Positions 6,379-44,700 of a DNA stretch of 64,000 nucleotides are shown one piece after another. The position numbers and the translations under genes are program-made. Below the pieces are notes generated by a model. It was not told the DNA's origin and searched no databases. It was given only the letters and a program-made list of their open reading frames with translations. Origin of the DNA: Octopus vulgaris (lineage: Eukaryota); assembly GCA_951406725.2 (NCBI GenBank), contig OX597814.1, positions 151,714,001 to 151,778,000 of the forward strand, read 5' to 3'. Numbering within the stretch: the first letter of the stretch is position 1; the number at the start of each line of letters is the position of its first letter.

Positions 6379-7884
6379 GTATGTCTGGCTTCCAAATATT
6401 TTATTTGTATCTTACCGAAAAAGTTGTCTAAAATATCCTAAAGCAATTCTTTGCCAATTTTTAACATCTTGTGATACAGTATTAATTCTAGAAAGCACCA
6501 GACAAGCTATAGCGCATTTCAGTGGTGTTATGAAAGAGATTCTGAGTTTTTGTCAAAATGTAAGAAAATATAAAATTGTGCAGAATATTCAGAAACCAAA
6601 TTATATTCAACCCTAAATTACTGTTAATAAATTCAATGCGTTATTCTGTTGATGCATTTCGGCCATGCATCTGCATTCATGCAGGAAAGCCACTGTGGAA
6701 AAAATTAGGTTCTACCGAAACTGGAAATCAGATTGTTGGATTCAGAGCCCAAAGTGATAACCATTACACCATAGAATCAGTTTTATAGCTAAATTCAAAT
6801 TAAATTCGTCATACAGTTAGCATATTTGCTGCAAACTTGATTTCATACACCAACTTGTATTAAAATCACTAACTAGCGAGAGAGCTTCTACGTGATCGCT
6901 TACTCTACTAGAAATAGCAGCCAAATTTTTCATAAGCCACACTCTGCGGCCTGAAATAAATATATTGAATAATGCAGTTCCTATACAAAAACACGATATT
7001 ATCATTTTTGGAGCACCTTTAATCAAAAGTCTTCTTCGTTAGTGCTGAACAGAATCTAAAATCAAGAACAACACAGAAAGCACAGCAACTATTTTTCTCG
7101 TTCATAAAGCACAAATCTCACATCCTCTATCACATAATCCACATACATACATAGTGGTGGAAATCAACTGCTCGGCAGATGTTAACATGAAGCTAATGAT
7201 CAGAGAAAAAGAAAATACCTACGCTGAACTATTGGGAAATCTACAGTTACTCTACGCAGATTACAAGTTCACAATGATACCTATAATTATTGGGGTGCTA
7301 AGATAGGTAACACACTGCGTATGTACCAATCCTGAGAAATTAAGCTTCTATAATCAGAAAGGAGAAAGCTGATTCGAAGACTACAGATCCAAGCCATCAC
7401 TGGAACTATGAGTCTGTAAAACTTTCCAGAAGTTTATCTGTTAAATATTTATGTTCGTGTCTAGACATGCTCATATGTCTGAGAATACACACATAAAACA
7501 AAATATACAAATTTGCACATGTACTGACTCCAAATACTGCACATGTACGCATACACATGCAGAGATACCCTGTTGATGTTCAAATTTCAGTGAATGAGCT
7601 TTGGCTCTAGGTTAAAAACCGGATTTTTTTCTATTAACAAGAAATCTTGAAATATACTGAATTATGACAGACAAACAGATAGACATAGAGCTACTAAATA
7701 CCTTATGATAAAGCTACTAAATAGATTATCAAAGAATACTGGTGTCCATTAAAAGAAAATTACTACTTATCCAAGATGGTAAATTGGCAAGATTTTAAAA
7801 CGAATCACCTTGCAATATTCATTTCAGCTCTTTGCCTTCTGTAGCCTACTTGGGTGTAGTTTGTTATCTTGTTTCACATCACCA

Positions 7885-15743: not shown

Positions 15744-17072
15744 GTGTGCGTATGTATGTATGTGTGTGTGTATGTGCATGTTGGTTTGTATGTTAGTGTG
15801 TGCTAGTATGTCTGTAAGTGTGTGTGATTAAATGTGTGAATGTATGTACGTAGATGGGTCTACGTATGTGTGTGTGTGCACAGGCGTGTGGGAGGTAGGT
15901 GGGTGTGTGTGTGTGGGAGGTAGGTGGGTGGGTGTGTGCGTGTGGGAGGTAGGTGGGTGGGGGTGTGGGGGTGGTGTGAAAAAAAACAAAAAAAAAAACA
16001 AAAAAAAACGGATCTCTGGAGGAGGGGGCTGTGTTAAGTCCGTGTGGGGTGGTAGTTTGTAGGGTGAAGATGTAGCGTTGCTCCAAGTGGAGCCTGGAAA
16101 GTGGGCGACCATTGTGGGGGCGAGACCAAACACTGAGATGTCATCTAGGGAATGGCCGGCCGAGCGGAAGTGGCGTGCGACGGGAGAAAAAGAGTGTAGG
16201 CGAACGTCCCTCAAGTGTTCAGTGAAACGGTCGGACAACCGGCGTCCCGTCTGTCCTACATATAGCATCCCGCATAGGTTGCATTTAATGCAGTAAATAA
16301 GGCCAGACGAGGTGCACGTAAAAGAGTGCCTAATGCGTACAGTATGCAGGTTGGAGCCGGTGACAGCGGTGGTGTTGGTGATGAAGGGGCAAGTGTTGCA
16401 GCGGGATCTAGAGCAAGGGAATGATCCGTGTGGGGCTGAGGGGGAAGGAGAGAGGGTGCTGTGGACCAGGAGGTCACGCAGATTGCGGGCTCGTTTGAAA
16501 GAGGACAGGGGTGGGTTAGGGAAAATGGGGCGGGTGGTGGGATCAAGCTGGAGGCGATGGAAGGCACGTAGTATCTTGCGACGAAGGGGTAGGGTAGAGG
16601 GGTGGAAAAGGAGGGGGAAGGGGTGCGGTTGGGGGGTGGGCGAGGGGAAGGAGACAGGGCGGTAGTGCGGTCGATGCGACGGGCGCGGGTGAGGGCATCA
16701 GAGAGGAGTATGGGTGGGTAACCTCGGAGTCTGAACATGCGGGACAGGTATTGAGATTGGGTCTCGAAATCCTGGTCGCGGCTGCACAAACGGCGGAGGC
16801 GGAGGAACTGGGAGTAGGGGATGGCTCGTTTGGTGTGGAAGGGGTGGGAGGAAGAGAAGTTGAGATAGAGGTGGGAATCCGTAGGTTTAAAGAAGGCGGT
16901 GGTGGTGAGAGAGCTGGAGGGGTGATCGATGCGGAGAGAGATGTCAAGGAAGTTGACAGAGGTGTTGGAGATGTTGGAGGTGAATTGAAGAGAGGGGTGA
17001 AAGTTGGAAAGGAAAGAGATGAATTGTCAGAGAAGTTCACGGGAAAGGGAGGTGGCACCTACGCAGTCGTCG
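12965..17072 (-). mobile_element. 5'-truncated Penelope-like element (probably Neptune type) with a long CA-rich simple-repeat 3' region
   Basis: RT C-terminus (IPYSQFLRLRRLCSRDQDF...RGYP) and GIY-YIG endonuclease (GLIYCIKCNLCGMLYVGQTGRRLSDRFTEHL) at ~16060-17060, frameshifted. About 2.7 kb of (CA/TACA)n follows, with a hammerhead-like motif near the end. Confidence 0.8.
13055..13081 (-). ncRNA. PLE-type hammerhead-like motif (variant core)
   Basis: Minus strand reads CCGACGA-A-GAGC-TCC-GCTC-GAAAC-GTC, with U4C and an extra A before stem II. Stem I is not evident. Confidence 0.45.
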
Positions 17073-17858: not shown

Positions 17859-17965
17859 TTCTATTATGAAATTATGCATCTCCTGTTCTGTTCTTTCGAA
17901 AGTATGAATCCATAAAAATTATAAACATATTGTTTTACAGTAAGTTATTTTCCTCTGAAAAACTA

Positions 17966-19809
17966 CAGTGTCTTGCAAAAGTGTACACCCACCTTGGAAA
18001 CTGGATGTATTTTGTTTATTTTGATATTAATATTTTAAACTCCAATAATTTGTTTTAATAACCAGTTATGTTACACTTTTATTTAATACACAAAATACAT
18101 TTGAAAAATTTAAAACTGATTCTTAACTCTTTAGTGTTTGCATTATTTTGCCAAAATTAATGCCTCTTCATCCACATTGTTTTGAACTAATCATGCTTTA
18201 TCTTGTAGCTATGAGTCTTTGATGAGGTAGCTGTTAATTTTTAAAACGATATTGTAGGGTTGGTGTGAGAGACCAGATCTGGCCAGTTTGAACATAAAAC
18301 AGGCAGAATACTTTTGGCCGGATATGGCTTGTTTAAATGCTAAAGGGTTAAACAAAGATAATTTTGAAAAATTTCTTTTCAAAAGTCTACACTCCCTTTG
18401 GAATGTTTTCAGCTAAGACTTTGTGGATGATCCTGCTGCGTCAGTTACAGCCTGTAGACGCCTCGAGTAGCCTTCCAGGAGCTTGCTGCAGTGGTCTGCT
18501 GTCAGTTTTCGCCATTCTTCATGGCAGAACTTCTCGAGCTGTGTCAGATTGGATAGGGAACGTCGGTGCACAGCCAGCTTTAGATTTCGCTATAGATTTT
18601 CTATAGGATTGAGGTCAGTGATTTTCTTGCTAGCAAACCAAGCTTCAGTGCTTTTTGACACATGCTTGAGGTCGTTATCTTGTTGAAACTTGAAATTGCG
18701 ACCCAAGCGCAGAGCTCTAGCAGACTTCAGCAGGTTTGCCTCCAATATTTCTTGGTACTTGACACTGTCCATGATACCTTGGATGGTTACCAACTCTCCA
18801 GGCCCTGCAGCTGAAAAGCAGCTTCAAAGCATGATCGAGCCACCGCCGTCTTTAAACTGGGGGCGGTGTAACGAGGTTGGTGAGCAGTGCCTTTTTTCCG
18901 CCAAATAACTCGACTTTGGTCTTATCTGACCACAAAATCTTTCGCCACACGGTCATGGAATCATTAATGTGACTTTTGGCAAAGTTTAGCCTAGCTTGCT
19001 TGTGTATAGGCTTCAGAAGGGGCTTTTTTCTAGCTACCCTCCCTTGCAGGCCAGACCAGTGCAATACTCTGGAAATTGCAGATGCATGGACATCTGTCCC
19101 AGTACTGGAAACTGAAGCTTTCAAGTCTTCCAGTGTTGCACTAGGGTTGGAGTTTGCCTCCCGGACCAGTTTTGACTTTGCTTTTCTGGTAAGTTTGCTC
19201 GGTCCCCCAGATCTTGGTAGGGTAGCAGTGGTTTTGTGCACTAACCACTTCTTAACTACAGTTTTAACAGTGCTTATGGGCAATTCTAAAGGTTTTGCAA
19301 TCTTTTTATAGCCATTATTTTCATTGTACTTTTGAATAATAAGGTTTTTAAGTTCCTGAGACAGAGGCTTGCCCATTTTCTTTCCCGAGTTGGAAACCTT
19401 GTGTTTACAGTCAGATTCCAAAGACCAACATACCCAAAAACCATGTGGTGAATGATTTTGTAGGCAGTTAAATCACCTTATATAGCAAAATAACAGACAG
19501 GCCAAGTTTGTTTGTTATGGTAGAACGCACATGTCACTTTTGATTGTTTTGGATTGTATACAAACTATCTGATAACACAGTATAATATCTGGTGGTGGGG
19601 TGTAGACTTTTGCAAAGACATTTTTCTAAGTTAAATGATTTTAAGAATCAGTATGAAATTTTTAAAAGGTAATTTTTATATCAAAGGAAAGTGTGATGGA
19701 TCTGCTTGTTATTTAACAATCATTGGAATTGAAAAAATGTGTTGTTCCTTGTTAAATTATACAAAATATATAAATCTTCAAAGGGGATGTAGACTTTTTC
19801 AAGCCACTG
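17966..19809 (-). mobile_element. Tc1-family DNA transposon (IR/DR type), inactive
   Basis: TA-CAGTGTCTTGCAAAAGTGTACAC at the left end and GTAGACTTTTTCAAGCCACTG-TA at the right. Inner repeats at ~18372-18400 and ~19595-19620. Transposase starts at ATG 19376 with WSD, FQQDND and DLNPIENL motifs, frameshifted and internally deleted. Confidence 0.9.
18127..18347. mobile_element. piggyBac-type MITE nested in the Tc1 element
   Basis: TTAA on both sides (18123-18126, 18348-18351). Termini CTCTTTAGTGTTT and AAATGCTAAAGGG. Confidence 0.65.
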
Positions 19810-20495
19810 TAAGTAACATTTTGATCATTTATTTATATTTATTTGTTTATTTTTTTATGTAAACATTAGTATAGGTAGTAGATAACCGTAATTTTTATAA
19901 AATTGTTTAAAATAAACGAACTTTTGAATAAATAGTTAAGGGACTTTTTGAATGACTTTAGTAAATTTCTATTATAATAATACAATATTTTGATACCATA
20001 TATTTATGGTTATATTTATTTTATCGAAAGTTATTTTCTTAATGAAACTACGTAAATTTTAATTTTTAATTGCATTTTTACTATGGGTGGTTGTAAATAA
20101 TGAATACAGTGTAATTTATAATATGTAAATTATGATACTATGTATTGGCCTTGTGAGGATAAAGTATTAAAAAAATTTTTTTTTTGCTCTTTAGCCATGA
20201 TTAATAGTTTTTGTTTTATAATACTAGTGAGAATAAGGATTTTTCTGAATAAATCGTTTGAATAACATGTATTTTTCCTAATAGTATGGAAGAATAAAAG
20301 GAATTAATTAATAAGGGTGAGAGAATTAGATACTAATTTAATAGTAAATGCTGTATTTGTTTTCCGTGAGAGTTTGGCGCGCTGTTGGTTGGGGCATTTG
20401 AATTATAACGTCCGATGTAATCAATTGAACCGCACGCGTATTTATCGTTATGGTAAAATCTGGCGTGTGATTGAGTGGATTTCATCCAGATAGTC

Positions 20496-20571
20496 TTGGC
20501 TGAAGAGCTACAAATGGATTACTGTAAGTAATATTACATTTAATTCATTAATAGCGAAACAATTGTCCCAA
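20496..20571 (+). ncRNA. Type-I hammerhead ribozyme, unit 1
   Basis: Stem I TTGG/CCAA, core CTGAAGA, extended stem II GCTA..AATGGATTA..TGTAA/TTACA..TAATTCATT..TAGC, then GAAA-C-AATT-GTC with a palindromic stem III. Confidence 0.85.
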
Positions 20572-21029
20572 AATAATCTGTATTTTTGTTATTTTTTATT
20601 TGCCCTGTCCGTGTGAGCTAACAGTCGTACCGGCTTTCATGGGAAACATGTATTTTTCGTGGTTGAAACCTCTTGGATTAACTGGTGCTAGAGTGATCAA
20701 TATAGTGAACACTCTCTTATATTTATTTTGTGAAAATATTATAATATGTTATAAAATATTATAATAATCCAGGTTTCTCGTAGCACTAGGCCACTTGGTG
20801 TGGAATAAATATACTATTAAATTAGTATCTAATTCTCTCACCCTTATTAATTAATTATAATTATGCTGCATTTATTTCTAAATGCTGTATTTGTTTTCCG
20901 TGAGAGTTTGGCGCGCTGTTGGTTGGGGCATTTGAATTATAACGTCCGATGTAATCAATTGAACCGCACGCGTATTTATCGTTATGGTAAAATCTGGCGT
21001 GTGATTGAGTGGATTTCATCCAGATAGTC

Positions 21030-21105
21030 TTGGCTGAAGAGCTACAAATGGATTACTGTAAGTAATATTACATTTAATTCATTAATAGCGAAACAATTGT
21101 CCCAA
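21030..21105 (+). ncRNA. Type-I hammerhead ribozyme, unit 2
   Basis: Same sequence as 20496-20571, offset +534. Confidence 0.85.
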
Positions 21106-21563
21106 AATAATCTGTATTTTTGTTATTTTTTATTTGCCCTGTCCGTGTGAGCTAACAGTCGTACCGGCTTTCATGGGAAACATGTATTTTTCGTGGTTGA
21201 AACCTCTTGGATTAACTGGTGCTAGAGTGATCAATATAGTGAACACTCTCTTATATTTATTTTGTGAAAATATTATAATATGTTATAAAATATTATAATA
21301 ATCCAGGTTTCTCGTAGCACTAGGCCACTTGGTGTGGAATAAATATACTATTAAATTAGTATCTAATTCTCTCACCCTTATTAATTAATTATAATTATGC
21401 TGCATTTATTTCTAAATGCTGTATTTGTTTTCCGTGAGAGTTTGGCGCGCTGTTGGTTGGGGCATTTGAATTATAACGTCCGATGTAATCAATTGAACCG
21501 CACGCGTATTTATCGTTATGGTAAAATCTGGCGTGTGATTGAGTGGATTTCATCCAGATAGTC

Positions 21564-21639
21564 TTGGCTGAAGAGCTACAAATGGATTACTGTAAGTAAT
21601 ATTACATTTAATTCATTAATAGCGAAACAATTGTCCCAA
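21564..21639 (+). ncRNA. Type-I hammerhead ribozyme, unit 3
   Basis: Same sequence as 20496-20571, offset +1068. Confidence 0.85.
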
Positions 21640-21798
21640 AATAATCTGTATTTTTGTTATTTTTTATTTGCCCTGTCCGTGTGAGCTAACAGTCGTACCG
21701 GCTTTCATGGGAAACATGTATTTTTCGTGGTTGAAACCTCTTGGATTAACTGGTGCTAGAGTGATCAATATAGTGAACACTCTCTTATATTTATTTTG

Positions 21799-23510
21799 GG
21801 AAGAATAAAAGGAGATACTTCCTATTTCTTTGAAATGTCCCCAGATGTCTGTGTGAGCACGGAGGATCTACTCAGTAGAATCAGTAGTTACAACCACTTT
21901 AACGACCTCACAGTTTGTGTAGTAGGTAGTATGGTTGTAATCTCACTCTACCCATCTATAGACATAAATTTTTGTTGTAGAAAAATGCCTTGAGATTATC
22001 TGTGAGAGTGAAGTAGAGTTCCGTGAGGAACTGAGCCTCCTCAAACTAAGCTATGACAGTAACTATCTAGACAACCATGACTTTGGTAGATTCTGCCCTA
22101 GGAGGTCACAAAGGGAAAGACCACCTCAGCAGTGAAGAAAAGCACCGCATAGCGCTGGAGTGGTTGGACTAATCCCACCCAAGACCCTGAGAACAACAAT
22201 CAGATGATAAGAATGATTGCATAATACAACAGGGGTTAGCATAAGAATCATCTTGAAGAACCACATAATAACGTTTAACAGAAAACTATACACGCAGGTT
22301 CAAGGGCAGCCATTGGTGTCGGTATAGCTGAGGATGAGGCCGGCCTCTACATGACCTGGTGGGACAGAAAACTTAAACAATCCTTAACAGAACAATCCAC
22401 AACTCTTTTACTTTACTGTAAGTATGTAGACGACATTAAAATTCTAGTTAAGACCAACTCTAGTAACGGTAATGTAGAAACTGAAAGGAACATAATGGAG
22501 AGAATCCAGCATGTAGCTAACTCCATCCACCAAAGAATCAAGGTAACTATAGATTACCCCACTAGGCACTCTGACAATAAACTCCCGGTCTTTGGTTCTG
22601 AACTTTGGTTAGAGATGTGAACAACGGAGTGTAGCTCCTCCACTGCTATTACATGGAACCCATAGCTTCGAAATATGTTGTTCACAAGAACTCAGCTTTG
22701 TCACGCAACATGAAAATCAGCATAATAGTAACAGACTTAGTTAGGATAATGTGTCCCCTCTATGCAGACCCTATGAAGCAAAGAAATATGTACAGAACTT
22801 CATGCACCGCATGCAATTCTCTGAATATGATCAGAAAGACAGGGTTCGGGTATACAGGGGTGCTAGAAAGAAGTTTGATAACATTCTATGTAATTAAACC
22901 AGTGGTGCTTGCCCTAGATATAGAAATAAAGACTGGAATAAAATACAAAGAGTTTATGACAAAGCAAACACGTGGTACAAGACCGACAAATATCAAGGAA
23001 CGATGTTTGTAGAGGCCACAGTTCATGGAAAACTAGCCCGTAGATTTAGGAAAGCTCTGAAGGAGACCAAACTTAACATTAAGATCGTTGAAAAACCAGA
23101 GAGCTCCATCAGATCACAACTATGTAGGACTTACACCTTTGAGAATACCACATGCACTAATGATAACTGCATGGTGTGTAGGATTAACCCTGGCATTAAT
23201 TGTAGAACTAGAAATGTAGTCTACAGCATAAGGCGCATAGAAGGTGCTTGTAAAGACAAAAACATGATATACATAGGCAAGGTAGCGAGGAGCATTGCGG
23301 AAAGACTAAATGAACATTTGAGACAATATGATGACAAAAAACAGTCCTCCATGCTCTACCAACATGCCAAAGACCATCATGGAGGCAACCTGGATCAACT
23401 TGACATCCGCATTTTATCCAAGCACCCGAAGGACACAACACTCAGACAAATACAGGTGTACGTCCTCATAAATGTAACATCCCCAGTAGCAAATAGGAAA
23501 TATACGTAGT
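21799..23510 (+). mobile_element. Degenerate Penelope-like element (RT + GIY-YIG)
   Basis: SMVVISLYPSID and YCKYVDDI (RT), CRTRNVVYSI...IYIGKVARSIAERLNEH (GIY-YIG). Many stops and frameshifts. Confidence 0.85.
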
Positions 23511-37320: not shown

Positions 37321-39677
37321 ATCAACTCGAAGATGGCGAGCTGACAGTCGTTTCCAGGTCGGATCAAATGCTTAGTGCAATTTCTTCCGTCTCTTTATGT
37401 TCTGAGTTCGGATGCAACTGAGTTACTACTTTGTATTTCATCCTTTTGGAGCCTATAAAATAGGTATTTGTTGAGCATACTGAGTTTAATGTTATCGACA
37501 ACTCCACCTCCCCTAATATACTTGGCCTTGTGCCAAAATTTGAAACTTTAATTAATCATCTAGGTTATCAGTAAGTGAACTTAAAACTGGCGCTCAGTTG
37601 ATTACGGCGATGCGGGTTTCTGTTGATCTTATCAAAAGAAAAGCCTGCTTTCATGAAATTAACTTGCAAGTGGCTGAGTACTCCACAGACACGTACACCA
37701 TTAACGTAGTTCTCAGGGAGATTCAGAGTGACATAGGACATGGCAATGTTGGCTCTTCGAAATACACGAACTATTAATTTTTGCCAGTTGAGTGGACTGG
37801 AACAACATGAAATAAAGTGTCTTACTCAAAGGCATAATAGACCGCCAGGTATCGAACTCAAGACCTTACGATTTTGAGCAGACTACCCTAACTGCTTAAC
37901 CACGCGCCTTCACAAGTTAACTAATTAAGCATTTAACGAATCGATTGCATGACCAATCGTTGGATAAGTCAATCAGTTGGTTTGTTAGAGTCTTTCCGTT
38001 GCCATTTGCAATGTCATCGATAAAGTCCTCGTCGTTCCAGGTCTAGTCAGGAGACAAAGCTCTACTTATGGCCCTTTATAGAGCCTTCGACACCGATGGT
38101 AGTGAGTACGGGTGGTAACTTCAAACTGGAGACGTGTTCTGAATGTCTGCAACAGAGGGAATCCCACCAGAAGCTCTTAAGGTGCCGTATGGTGATGCTA
38201 AACAAGATAACAAGATAACTACACCCAAGTAGGCTACAGAAGGCAAAGAGCTGAAATGAGCATTGCAAAGTGATTCGTTTTAAAATCTTGCCAATTTACC
38301 ATCTTGGATAAGTAATATTTTTTTTTAATGGACACCAGTATTCTTTGATAATGTATTTAGTAGCTCTATGTCTATCTGTTTGTCTGTCATAATTCAGTTT
38401 ATTTCAAGATTTCTTGTTAATAGAAAAAAAGCCGGTTTTTAACCTAGAGCCAAAGCTCATTCACTGAAATTTGAACATCAACAGGGTATTTCTGCATGTG
38501 TATGCGTACATGTGCAGTATTTGGAGTCAGTACATGTGCAGATTTGTATATTTTGTTTTATGTGTGTATTCTCAGACATATAATTGCATGTCTAGACATG
38601 AACAAAGATATTTAACTGATAAACTTCTGGACAGTTTTACAGACTCATAGTTCCAGTGATGGCTTGGATCTGTAGTCTTCGAATCAGCTTTCTCCTTTCT
38701 GATTATAGAAGCTTAATTTCTCAAGATTGGTACATACGCAGTGTGTTACCTATCTTAGCGCCCCAATAATTATAGGTATCATTGTGAACTTGTAATCTGC
38801 GTAGAGTAACTGTAGATTTCCCAATAGTTCAGCGTAGGTATTTTCTTTTTCTCTGATCATTAGCTTCATGTTAACATCTGCCGAGCAGTTGATTTCCACC
38901 ACTATGTATGTATGTGGAGTCTGTGATAGAGGATGTGAGATTTGTGCTTTATGAACGAGAAAAATAGTAGCTGTGCTTTCTGTGTTGTTCTTGATTTTAG
39001 ATTCTGTTCAGCACTAACGAAGAAGACCTTTGATTAAAGGTGCTCCAAAAATGATAATATTGTGGTTTTGTATAGGAACTGCATTATTCAATATATTTAT
39101 TTCAGGCCGCAGAGTGTGGCTTATGAAAAATTTGGCTGCTATTTCTAGTAGAGTAAGCGATCACGTAGAAGCTCTCTCGCTAGTTAGTGATTTTAATACA
39201 AGTTGGTGTATGAAATCAAGTTTGCAGCAGATATGCTAACTGTATGACGAATTTAATTTGAATTTAGTTATAAATCTGATTCTATGGTGTAATGGTTATC
39301 ACTTTGGGCTCTGAATCCAACAATCTGATTTCCAGTTTCGGTAGAACCTAATTTTTTCCACAGCGGCTTTCCTGCATGAGTGCAGATGCATGGCCGAAAT
39401 GCATCAAAAGAATAACGCATTGAATTTATTAACACTAATTTGGGGTTGAATATAATTTGGTTTCTGAATATTCTGCACAATTTTATATTTTCTTACACTT
39501 TGACAAAATCTCAGAAACTCTTTCATAACATCACTGAAATACGCTATAGCTTGTCTGGTGCTTTCTAGAATTAATACTGTATCACAAGATGTTAAAAATT
39601 GGCAAAGAATTGCTTTAGGATATTTTAGACAAATTTTTCGGTAAGATACAAATAAAATATTTGGAAGCCAGACATAC

Positions 39678-44149: not shown

Positions 44150-44700
44150 ATACAGCTAAGGGTCAGACCCGATTCTGATTGGTTAAAACATTGATGACGT
44201 CTCGTTCTGCTGGACTAGCCACCTAACGGGACGATTGGTCAAAACATTGATGACGTCTCGTTCCGCTGGACTAGCCACCTAACAGGTTACAGTCATGGGT
44301 CAGATCTAATACAGCTATAGGTCAGACCCGATTCTGATTGGTCAAAACATTGATGACGTCTCGTTCTGCTGGACTAGCCACCTAACGAGATGATTGGTCA
44401 AAACATTGATGACGTCCCGTTCTGCTGGACTAGCCACCTAGCGAGATGATTGGTCAAAACATTGATGACGTCTCTTTCCGCTTGACTAGCCACCTAACAG
44501 GATACAGTCATGGATCAGATCTAATTTCAATCCGTCAAAAACAAGGATGACGCATTTCTTCCGTGGCCAAACTGTCGTTCTGCTTGGTTGGTTTCCTAAC
44601 AGGATATATTCGTTAAGACTGAGTTTTGATTGGTTGGGAACTATATGACGTCAGTGAAAAATGCAAGTGAGACAGCTAAGCTGAGCTGATATAAACCAAA
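44150..44700 (+). promoter_or_regulatory. Tandem CCAAT/CRE-like repeat array and putative PLE promoter
   Basis: Five copies of GATTGGTCAAAACATTGATGACGTC...GACTAGCCACCTA, then ATTGG, TGACGTCA (44646-44653) and TATAAA (44690-44695). Confidence 0.55.

Follow-up and report, generated by a model that had tools for sequence, protein, structure and literature searches.

The block of tandem units at 20288-21813 of the window, the whole 64-kb stretch of Octopus vulgaris DNA that was analysed, is probably a young non-LTR retrozyme with its outer ends at two fixed sites of the unit, inserted by a borrowed Penelope-type RT-endonuclease, both 3' ends of the broken target copying one circular 534-nt RNA. 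The parts of this reading differ in strength: there is little doubt about a two-site, two-primer origin of the insertions, and a helper enzyme of Penelope type is highly likely. The element itself is of a known kind, while the record left by its insertion is undescribed; the circle, the cleavage and the helper enzyme are what we infer.

The identity of the 534-bp units, claimed in a preliminary description of this DNA, is borne out by perfect identity at a period of 534 over 1454 nt (20345-21798, or 2.72 units), there being no mismatch between positions i and i + 534 from 20345 to 21264. No ORF of at least 80 aa was found across the insertion. The window contains exactly two copies of a 15-mer, one at 20288-20302 and the other at 21799-21813, and the repeat extends no further. 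The host repeat has five paralogues (L082, L083, L085 and two in L086) in which this 15-mer is single copy and the left flank runs straight into the right flank; the paralogues L084 and L087 have a deletion at the insertion site. The five empty sites confirm that the 15-bp duplication at 20288/21799 is a genuine target-site duplication (TSD), as had been proposed. The inverted piece of about 44 nt, also seen earlier, is the exact reverse complement of phases 467-510 (phases being offsets within the unit at 20346-20879), and phases 511-533 (23 nt) are missing at the inversion junction, where the arms overlap by 2 nt. A perfect 2.72-mer inside an exact 15-bp TSD supports the earlier suggestion of a single recent retro-insertion. 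Both outer ends coincide with sites that are fixed in the family, A at phase 510 and B at 385, with primer-template pairing of 1 nt at A and 0 at B. The target is complex rather than (TA)n, and the locus is valuable for lying outside (TA)n, since neither the stagger of 15 nt nor either primer junction is ambiguous there.

Table 1. Features of the insertion and its surroundings, in coordinates of the 64-kb window
Feature	Position	Strand	Basis
TSD left copy, 15 bp; top-strand 3' end is the putative arm A primer	20288..20302	+	single copy at 5 paralogous empty sites
Arm A, 44 nt, phases 467-510 sense on minus strand; outer end at family-fixed site A	20303..20346	-	
Head-to-head junction overlap, 2 nt, common to both arms	20345..20346	.	
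Arm B, 1454 nt: 2.72 identical units of 534 bp, ending on the outside at phase 385, the family-fixed site B	20345..21798	+	
Type-I hammerhead copy 1; predicted cut after 20567	20494..20573	+	sequence, fold, core conservation, stem I covariation
Type-I hammerhead copy 2; predicted cut after 21101	21028..21107	+	identical to copy 1
Type-I hammerhead copy 3; predicted cut after 21635	21562..21641	+	identical to copy 1
Predicted 534-nt monomer between two cuts (candidate circle)	20568..21101; second 21102-21635	+	inference; fold
Internal copy of site B, phases 379-386, 3' of one hairpin and 5' of another	20724..20731; again 21258-21265	+	family ends, fold
Internal copy of site A, phases 504-515, true start probably 510	20849..20860; again 21383-21394	+	family ends
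TSD right copy; bottom-strand 3' end is the putative arm B primer	21799..21813	+	empty sites
Host: old AT-rich interspersed repeat, target of the insertion; resumes to ~21828	19830..20287	.	not homologous to unit
Bystander outside the insertion: decayed, 5'-truncated Penelope-like ORF with RT motifs and GIY-YIG; family ~80% identical	21826..23510	+	

The units carry a predicted self-cutting type-I hammerhead. Every unit contains CUGAAGA, stem II, GAAA, a 2-bp stem III with a palindromic loop, and GUC, which ends at 20567, 21101 and 21635. An Rfam search gave no hammerhead match at the gathering score, nor at E ≤ 10, and the call therefore rests on the core, its conservation and covariation. 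The core is invariant in approximately 86-92 loci, save for N7 and two U4C loci, and stem I in relatives has changes on both sides, with a covariation score of 0.31 that was reached in none of 500 shuffles; the canonical hammerhead with palindromic stem III previously noted in each unit is upheld on these grounds. The 101-nt hammerhead region folds with a z of -2.7; for the 534-nt monomer the folding energy is -157.7 kcal/mol (z -7.8), while the global fold of the predicted circle gains no support from covariation along its full length (17 kept, 23 broken, 16 unpaired). Among Xenopus retrozyme dimers, eight of nine failed to cleave, according to the available part of bioRxiv 10.64898/2026.07.22.740005.

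The preliminary description had proposed a genome search tabulating copies, start phases and TSDs, and this finds a family of hundreds with ends at A and B. Genome-wide there are at least 855 exact A-ends joined to TA, at least 421 exact B-ends and at least 1547 internal read-throughs, all of them floors, and the young copies of this small non-coding element number roughly a thousand or more. Only about a tenth of it was sampled, as 38 best-hit loci and 80 A-ends taken in position order (L177 and L179, duplicates of L113, were dropped and C2:2546 was left out; L044, of low quality and adjoining an N run, is excluded from haplotype counts, and L146 and L163 from some junction counts). The outer ends lie at AT-rich positions inside the unit and have two fixed phases, A at approximately 510-514 (range 504-515) and B at approximately 384 (379-386). 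Head-to-head arrangement is found in 28 of the 38 best-hit loci, with one A (504-515) and one B (381-386) in 24 of these 28 and the same site at both outer ends in none. From the position-ordered A-ends a second arm was recovered in 52, ending at 379-386 in 47 of the 51 parsed; BLAST detected none in the remaining 28 of the 80 insertions, several of which have a B stub of 10-25 nt. Relatives at 72-91% identity keep the rule in three of four inverted loci, the B end of the fourth, L249, being unclear. In 12/51 both arms are longer than one unit. The best-hit loci have TA flanks in 33/38 and 36/38, and as targets are mostly (TA)n, TSDs are unreadable at most loci; a TSD of at least 14 nt is nevertheless present at 12 of 116, compared with 1-3 in shuffled pairings.

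These observations can be arranged into a reaction in which a genomic multimer would be transcribed and cut by its hammerheads, predicted from sequence, conservation and covariation, into 534-nt monomers for ligation. A staggered double-strand cut would be made, typically in (TA)n and in a complex site at the 20288 locus, where the observed TSD places the cuts in the two strands 15 nt apart. One strand would prime at approximately phase 510 and the other at approximately 384-385, with 0-4 nt of pairing, giving the fixed ends and the one-of-each pattern that are observed. On the putative circle, each RT would roll across the ribozyme junction for 0.05-12.6 laps, the observed range of arm lengths. 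Repair would join the two cDNA 3' ends, often via the 2-6 nt overlap seen at junctions, and, once joined, each would template the second strand of the other. An overlap of at least 2 nt is present in 26 of 36 insert-free joins (18% expected), and bases that are extra or could not be parsed are found at 30 of 66 junctions. Inner phases lie no more than 30 nt apart in 20 of 76 (8.6 expected), mainly with short arms, an excess that the model leaves unexplained.

The nature of the template can be addressed through the haplotypes of the copies. The arms of one insertion are identical in 43 of 65 cases, differing by a median of 0% compared with 2.4% to other loci, and laps within one arm likewise differ by a median of 0% against 1.9% (93 arms), while 72 full-length loci represent 55 haplotypes. 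Of the private alleles, each confined to a single locus among 116, 26 are fixed in every pass or every pass but one, 15 of them in both arms; at four or more passes, 52 private alleles are single, 10 intermediate and 19 fixed, though with roughly one copy in ten sampled, 'private' alleles may have unsampled donors. Stops do not accumulate at the cut site, where 2 of 49 arms stop in 272-312 nt and 6 of 130 inner ends lie at 215-230 (3.9 expected), and errors at the cut junction are few in 325 passes. One haplotype extending across units and arms, together with passage of the ribozyme cut without stopping, favours a single circular monomer, which seems a fairly probable template on this sequence evidence. 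The circle postulated in the preliminary description is thus favoured by the family haplotypes; the identical units at one locus, on which it had been based, are insufficient evidence for a circle. No A>G excess over T>C, a mark of RNA editing, is found in the family (16/30, 5/14, 7/17).

Some loci depart from this pattern. Among 67 multi-pass loci, a variant is limited to part of the laps in approximately 9, and two loci (L164 and L168) are mosaics, which implies that unit-level exchange or multimeric templates occur. In L063 the GUC is destroyed in lap 2 of both arms and is wild type on either side, which fits a dimer circle; a search for clean period-2 or period-4 lap patterns found L063 only, and L164 in part. 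No clean case of an array singleton fixed in a daughter was found in the sampled loci, where there are three weak candidates. The most credible alternative, though an unlikely one, is the same two-site, two-primer reaction with a linear template, namely uncleaved multimeric transcripts from a homogeneous donor array; each primer would have its own RNA, or a single RNA would serve both with strand displacement. Such a template fits L063 and the two mosaics, makes passage of the cut site trivial if it was never cut, and agrees with the available part of PMC11167929, in which the Poseidon_Ac enzyme PAc uses unprocessed RNA in vitro, prefers it uncleaved and does not need the ribozyme. It nevertheless requires a separate homogeneous donor for most of the 55 haplotypes and leaves the fixation of new alleles in every unit unexplained, 19 private alleles being fixed and 10 intermediate. 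Arrays could moreover only shrink, yet the haplotype of the 20288-21813 locus includes 12.5-unit arms elsewhere, and the conservation of the hammerhead core also tells against it.

It is considerably less plausible that the RT jumped repeatedly from the 5' end of a cleaved linear monomer to its own 3' end, a route that would dispense with a ligase and predicts the same homogeneity and shared arms; stops and indels at 222/223 are not in excess over the 325 passes, and jumps between molecules would yield mosaics, which are rare. Marginally less probable again is the model of bioRxiv 10.64898/2026.07.22.740005, as given in its available part, applied here as insertion of a monomer or dimer with later expansion and homogenisation by unequal crossing-over or gene conversion. 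Adjacent laps at times share a variant (L051, L064, L067, L183), and L164 has a partial four-unit pattern, but 15 private alleles are fixed across the inversion, intermediates are scarce, near-identical young copies with intact TSDs already have multi-unit arms, and the present locus is a perfect 2.72-mer within its exact TSD.

In the L1 twin priming reported by Ostertag and Kazazian in 2001, RT is said to start at the RNA 3' end, with a second primer annealing at random within the RNA and the first cDNA stopping beside it to leave a small deletion. Such a process, or fold-back self-priming, is largely refuted by the junction statistics and has a very low probability here. The insertions share with L1 the priming of both target strands, the TSD and microhomology at the inversion junction, and of the earlier twin-priming reading the 23-nt gap stands, so that the 20288 locus taken by itself would fit. 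However, both sites are internal and fixed across the family, the second not being random, there is no poly(A), and both arms copy the same template positions, overlapping by more than 50 nt in 37/51. Nor does the junction lie beside the second primer: inner ends adjoin the other priming site in 2/51 and 0/51 (4.4 expected each), and in a larger set in 5/76 and 3/76 (6.5 expected). Self-priming has been proposed for Penelope inversions (available part of PMC3846280), and near-palindromic junctions are in excess among short arms, but in 46/76 the length of arm B exceeds what a fold-back copy of arm A could give, and here it measures 1454 nt against 44. Arms of many units, and inner junctions that do not abut the other site, indicate that the 44-nt piece is a short first-strand arm rather than a 5' inversion of L1 type; the absence of 23 nt is a coincidence. 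Least probable of all is an assembly artefact, or a unit that is the pseudo-LTR of the adjacent Penelope ORF, despite units that are 100% identical and an ORF starting ~13 nt past the TSD, because hundreds of loci have their own haplotypes and unit numbers, the ORF is decayed, its 11 paralogues lack a unit match, and the empty site lies within the host repeat.

The two-site rule is also visible in an active Hydra-type PLE of this genome, whose ends are fixed at two points separated by 67 nt, one of each being present in 15 of 17 head-to-head copies. Between the unit and the pLTR of this element there is no homology, the score of 27 lying within the range of shuffles (up to 34), and none was found either in 20 loci of the neighbouring PLE family, save at the 20288-21813 locus itself, or in 20 loci of a third PLE family. 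No ORF is attached to an arm in the 80 position-ordered insertions or the 38 best-hit loci, and these copies are therefore not the pseudo-LTR of an ORF-bearing Penelope element; pseudo-LTRs in every case would have refuted the preliminary description. Several candidate relatives were rejected. Pattern hits with a shorter stem II (1 and 10) were considered as pLTRs, but where they match the unit they represent diverged copies of the retrozyme; in L254 a fragment of a Hydra-like ORF is ~500 nt off, beyond a TA tract; the decayed adjacent ORF has paralogues with other upstream sequence; and the host repeat, as an old relative of the unit, scores no higher than shuffles in 5/5.

The assignment to non-LTR retrozymes, also made earlier, is supported by tandem non-coding type-I hammerhead units and a TSD above 4 bp. 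In the available part of PMC7229834, metazoan non-LTR retrozymes have these features, along with a short palindromic stem III, PLE co-occurrence and a GC content below 50% (33% here); the 534-nt unit exceeds the 170-400 nt given there and falls inside the 51-972 nt of bioRxiv 10.64898/2026.07.22.740005. Both sources propose RT on a circle as a model, and the latter ascribes retrozyme tandems to local amplification; head-to-head multimeric arms, two fixed sites and monomer-template haplotypes are not described for retrozymes in the available parts of either. Unlike known retrozymes, this one has no cognate pLTR among the three PLE families sampled. A close parallel is Poseidon_Ac, whose enzyme, as characterised in the available part of PMC11167929, cuts and extends both strands at AT-rich targets from two internal RT start sites defining the tail, with little primer-template homology (0-4 nt of pairing here) and as a predicted dimer. 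In contrast, the retrozyme has no ORF, and its sites are 130 nt apart compared with a PLE tail of 30-40 nt; in that part of the source the strands were seen not to differ in start site, and no connection is drawn from the two sites to inversions or circles. Inverted 5' copies of PLEs are similarly head-to-head, with a tail at one end only and (TA)n targeting, and the available parts of PMC8557442 and PMC3846280 explain the tail by endonuclease resolution and the inversion by self-priming on an antisense template, whereas the family described here indicates two primers from the target, each with a fixed site of its own.

For the way in which retrozyme multimers enter genomes, and for the inversion and one-sided tail of PLE insertions, the literature offers, in the parts available, a circle model without a genomic test, unequal crossing-over, endonuclease resolution and self-priming (PMC7229834; bioRxiv 10.64898/2026.07.22.740005; PMC8557442; PMC3846280). 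The family yields predictions that can be counted: two exclusive start sites, both arms from one molecule and no stop at the ribozyme junction. The 534-nt unit is a defined substrate for the existing PAc-type assay, and an RT rolling on circles and writing multi-kilobase inserts from both break ends would be of interest to genome engineers. The balance tilts slightly towards a general rule, whereby Penelope-type enzymes would carry out a two-primer reaction on one RNA, each cut strand having its own fixed start site, and a ribozyme-made circle would turn this into independent rolling RTs whose cDNAs complete each other. If true, the two-primer rule would explain the inverted ends, the one-sided tail and the second-strand synthesis of PLEs, and the arrays would document directly, in genomic DNA, that a natural circular RNA undergoes rolling-circle reverse transcription in the germ line of an animal.

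Comparison of the window with itself reveals a flawless 534-bp periodic array of 2.72 units at 20345-21798, which is absent from the TRF list because the period limit of that program is 500. A 15-mer with only two copies in the whole window, at 20288 and 21799, flanks the insertion, and 20303-20346 reproduces phases 467-510 of the unit (20346-20879) exactly, in reverse complement. At the head-to-head junction of these two arms, phases 511-533 are absent and there is a 2-nt overlap. In five paralogous stretches of the adjacent AT-rich repeat the 15-mer is present once, spanning the left-to-right flank; hence the target site duplication asserted in the preliminary description is real, and the target was this host repeat. 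Two further paralogous loci are deleted at the insertion site.

Features around the insertion and a young Penelope-like element (PLE) elsewhere in the genome
Feature	Position	Strand	Remarks
Tc1-like (Tc1/mariner) transposon	~17964-19811		left of insertion; inverted ends; Pfam HTH_Tnp_Tc3_2
Tc1/mariner transposase fragment	18852-19472	minus	
Old AT-rich repeat	between Tc1-like transposon and insertion		target (host) of insertion
Decayed Penelope-like ORF	right of insertion		RT motifs; GIY-YIG match slightly below cut-off
Another young PLE family	16256-17026; fetched loci L257-L276	minus (window)	96-98% identical; open frames as long as 927 aa
tRNA-like matches, identical pair	6707-6778; 39278-39349	minus; plus	Rfam 40.3 bits; possibly SINE heads
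Young tandem repeat	44150-44498		56 bp; higher-order unit 159 bp
Young Hydra-type PLE	fetched loci L199, 2004-5773 (G000:C1:140938003-140941772), and L201-L246		very young family

The genome search for the unit proposed in the preliminary description returned at least 243 matches on many chromosomes, from 40 of 844 candidates scored, with 98-100% identity among those listed. In the 38 best-hit loci fetched from these, a choice favouring long arrays, the outer ends cluster at two phases, A and B. The layout is head-to-head in 28 of the 38, with one A end (504-515) and one B end (381-386) in 24; three others (L044, L054 and L061) end near these phases and one (L037) is off, while the same site is found at both ends in none of the 28. 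The ten uninverted loci end at A (5), B (4) or phase 489 (1), and TA-rich flanks are present at 33/38 and 36/38 on the two sides. Exact patterns matched internal read-throughs 1547 times and ends adjoining TA 855 times for A and 421 times for B; all three counts are floors. Because of the bias towards long arrays, a position-ordered sample of 80 insertions was also drawn (all 72 A-ends listed for one sequence, C1, plus 10 from the list of 28 for another, C2, minus two duplicates). A second arm is present in 52, ending at 379-386 in 47 of the 51 parsed; the other four end at 402 and 404 (BLAST run-ons), 384 on longer sequence, and 326. One junction shared by L113, L177 and L179, at three places on C1, represents a segmental duplication. 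The window locus, with A at 510 and B at 385, has the same architecture, and its 44-nt piece is therefore a short arm primed at A; the primer pairs with the template by one base at A and none at B. At TA targets A appears to shift to 514, since the final four bases are the same as in the target.

Every unit contains a type-I hammerhead with CUGAAGA, a long stem II, GAAA, and a 2-pair stem III with a palindromic loop; the first has its GUC at 20565-20567, and stem I carries an outer extension. As Rfam makes no hammerhead call on the unit, the assignment rests on family data. The core is invariant across ~86-92 loci, apart from position N7 and two U4C loci. In eight aligned relatives, few and related, with identity down to ~70%, both-sided changes occur at 7 of 17 pairs, six in stem I and its extension; none of the 500 shuffles and none of the slid controls reached this covariation. 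The perfect units, conserved core and stem I covariation uphold the earlier identification of a multimeric hammerhead retrozyme. Older subfamilies of ~70% identity (L247, L250, L253 and L254) have a shorter stem II and a compensatory stem I; site B is the same in all four, as is site A in L247. The U4C change, at phase 156, is found in L144 and in L168; the latter is one of two mosaic arrays, an association that suggests weaker cleavage together with a multimeric template.

Across 93 arms, the median divergence between laps of one arm is 0%, compared with 1.9% to other loci. Of 65 loci, 43 have two identical arms (median 0% vs 2.4% to other loci); 55 haplotypes exist among 72 full-length loci. 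Twenty-six alleles are confined to one of 116 loci and fixed there in every pass or with a single exception, 15 of them in both arms. Where there are at least four passes, private alleles are single in 52 cases, intermediate in 10 and fixed in 19. This homogeneity and fixation is the pattern given by a monomer bottleneck. The ribozyme site was passed by 49 of 80 A arms without enrichment of stops nearby, and variants within phases 221-225 occur in only three loci among 325 passes. The arms of one insertion were probably copied from one molecule, and the circular template envisaged in the preliminary description is likely, given the haplotype homogeneity and lack of stop enrichment. The main rival remains a linear uncleaved multimer, because a variant is common to some laps in ~9 of 67 multi-pass loci, L164 and L168 are mosaic, and no clean parent-daughter fixation was found among the sampled loci, which amount to roughly one in ten of the family. 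L063 has lost the GUC in the second lap of each arm, between wild-type laps; either a circle formed by a dimer or two rounds of copying from a linear donor would give this result. There was no A>G bias. A poly(T) run at phase ~173 varies in length from lap to lap in L152 and L164, as if through independent slippage in each lap, or assembly error.

The inversion had initially been read as twin priming. In the L1-type process, the inner end of one arm adjoins the primer of the other. Inner ends abut the other priming site in 2/51 and 0/51 cases (4.4 expected), or 5/76 and 3/76 when pooled (6.5 expected). Furthermore, in 12 of 51 loci each arm is longer than one unit, and over 50 nt of template were copied by both in 37 of 51. 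L1-type twin priming is consequently rejected; in 46 of 76 cases, a fold-back origin of arm B from arm A is excluded as well. Overlaps of at least 2 nt are found at 26 of 36 insert-free junctions (18% expected), and extra or unparsed bases at 30 of 66. Inner phases lie within 30 nt of each other in 20 of 76 loci (8.6 expected), and in 7 of 48 where an arm is longer than one unit (5.5 expected); the excess among short arms has no explanation under the model.

That copies might always be the pseudo-LTR of an ORF-bearing Penelope element, raised earlier as an objection, is not borne out, no ORF being joined to an arm in the 80 position-ordered and 38 best-hit loci. The adjacent Penelope-like ORF is a bystander rather than the parent of the unit, since its 11 paralogues have different upstream sequence and no unit match, and its family is old (best other matches 83-84% amino-acid identity). 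In L260, from the family at 16256-17026, a short stretch and poly(T) come after the ORF in place of a hammerhead match; a related subfamily has frames of 1008 aa.

Retrozymes, and the proposal that primed circles are copied by RT, feature in passages of PMC7229834 and PMC4209133, while the available part of a 2026 preprint (bioRxiv 10.64898/2026.07.22.740005) connects retrozymes with PLEs and suggests that the tandems are amplified locally. Passages of PMC11167929 describe extension on both strands, two internal starts giving the tail, and do not mention circles. The explanations of PLE inversions and one-sided tails in sections of PMC8557442 and PMC3846280 differ from the two-site priming proposed here. 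Neither exclusive two-site priming nor haplotype evidence for a circular template was found in the search results, which covered openly accessible literature without supplements.

The Hydra-type PLE has intact 717-aa frames of 99-100% identity, with RWK, DKT and CxCX5C motifs that agree with the Hydra clade as described in part of PMC8557442. Its pseudo-LTR contains a minimal hammerhead with a CCGAAGA core. Neither this pseudo-LTR nor two further sampled PLE families show homology to the unit that would mark one of them as the helper of the retrozyme. Copies of the Hydra-type element terminate at two fixed positions separated by 67 nt, with one of each kind in 15 of 17 head-to-head copies (only the ends being read in four long ones); the other two are irregular, and none has the same end twice. 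The full mechanism proposed is considered reasonably probable. The feature in the window is a real insertion of a non-LTR retrozyme that moved in Penelope fashion, and the one-of-each rule common to it and the Hydra-type PLE links this architecture to PLE enzymes.
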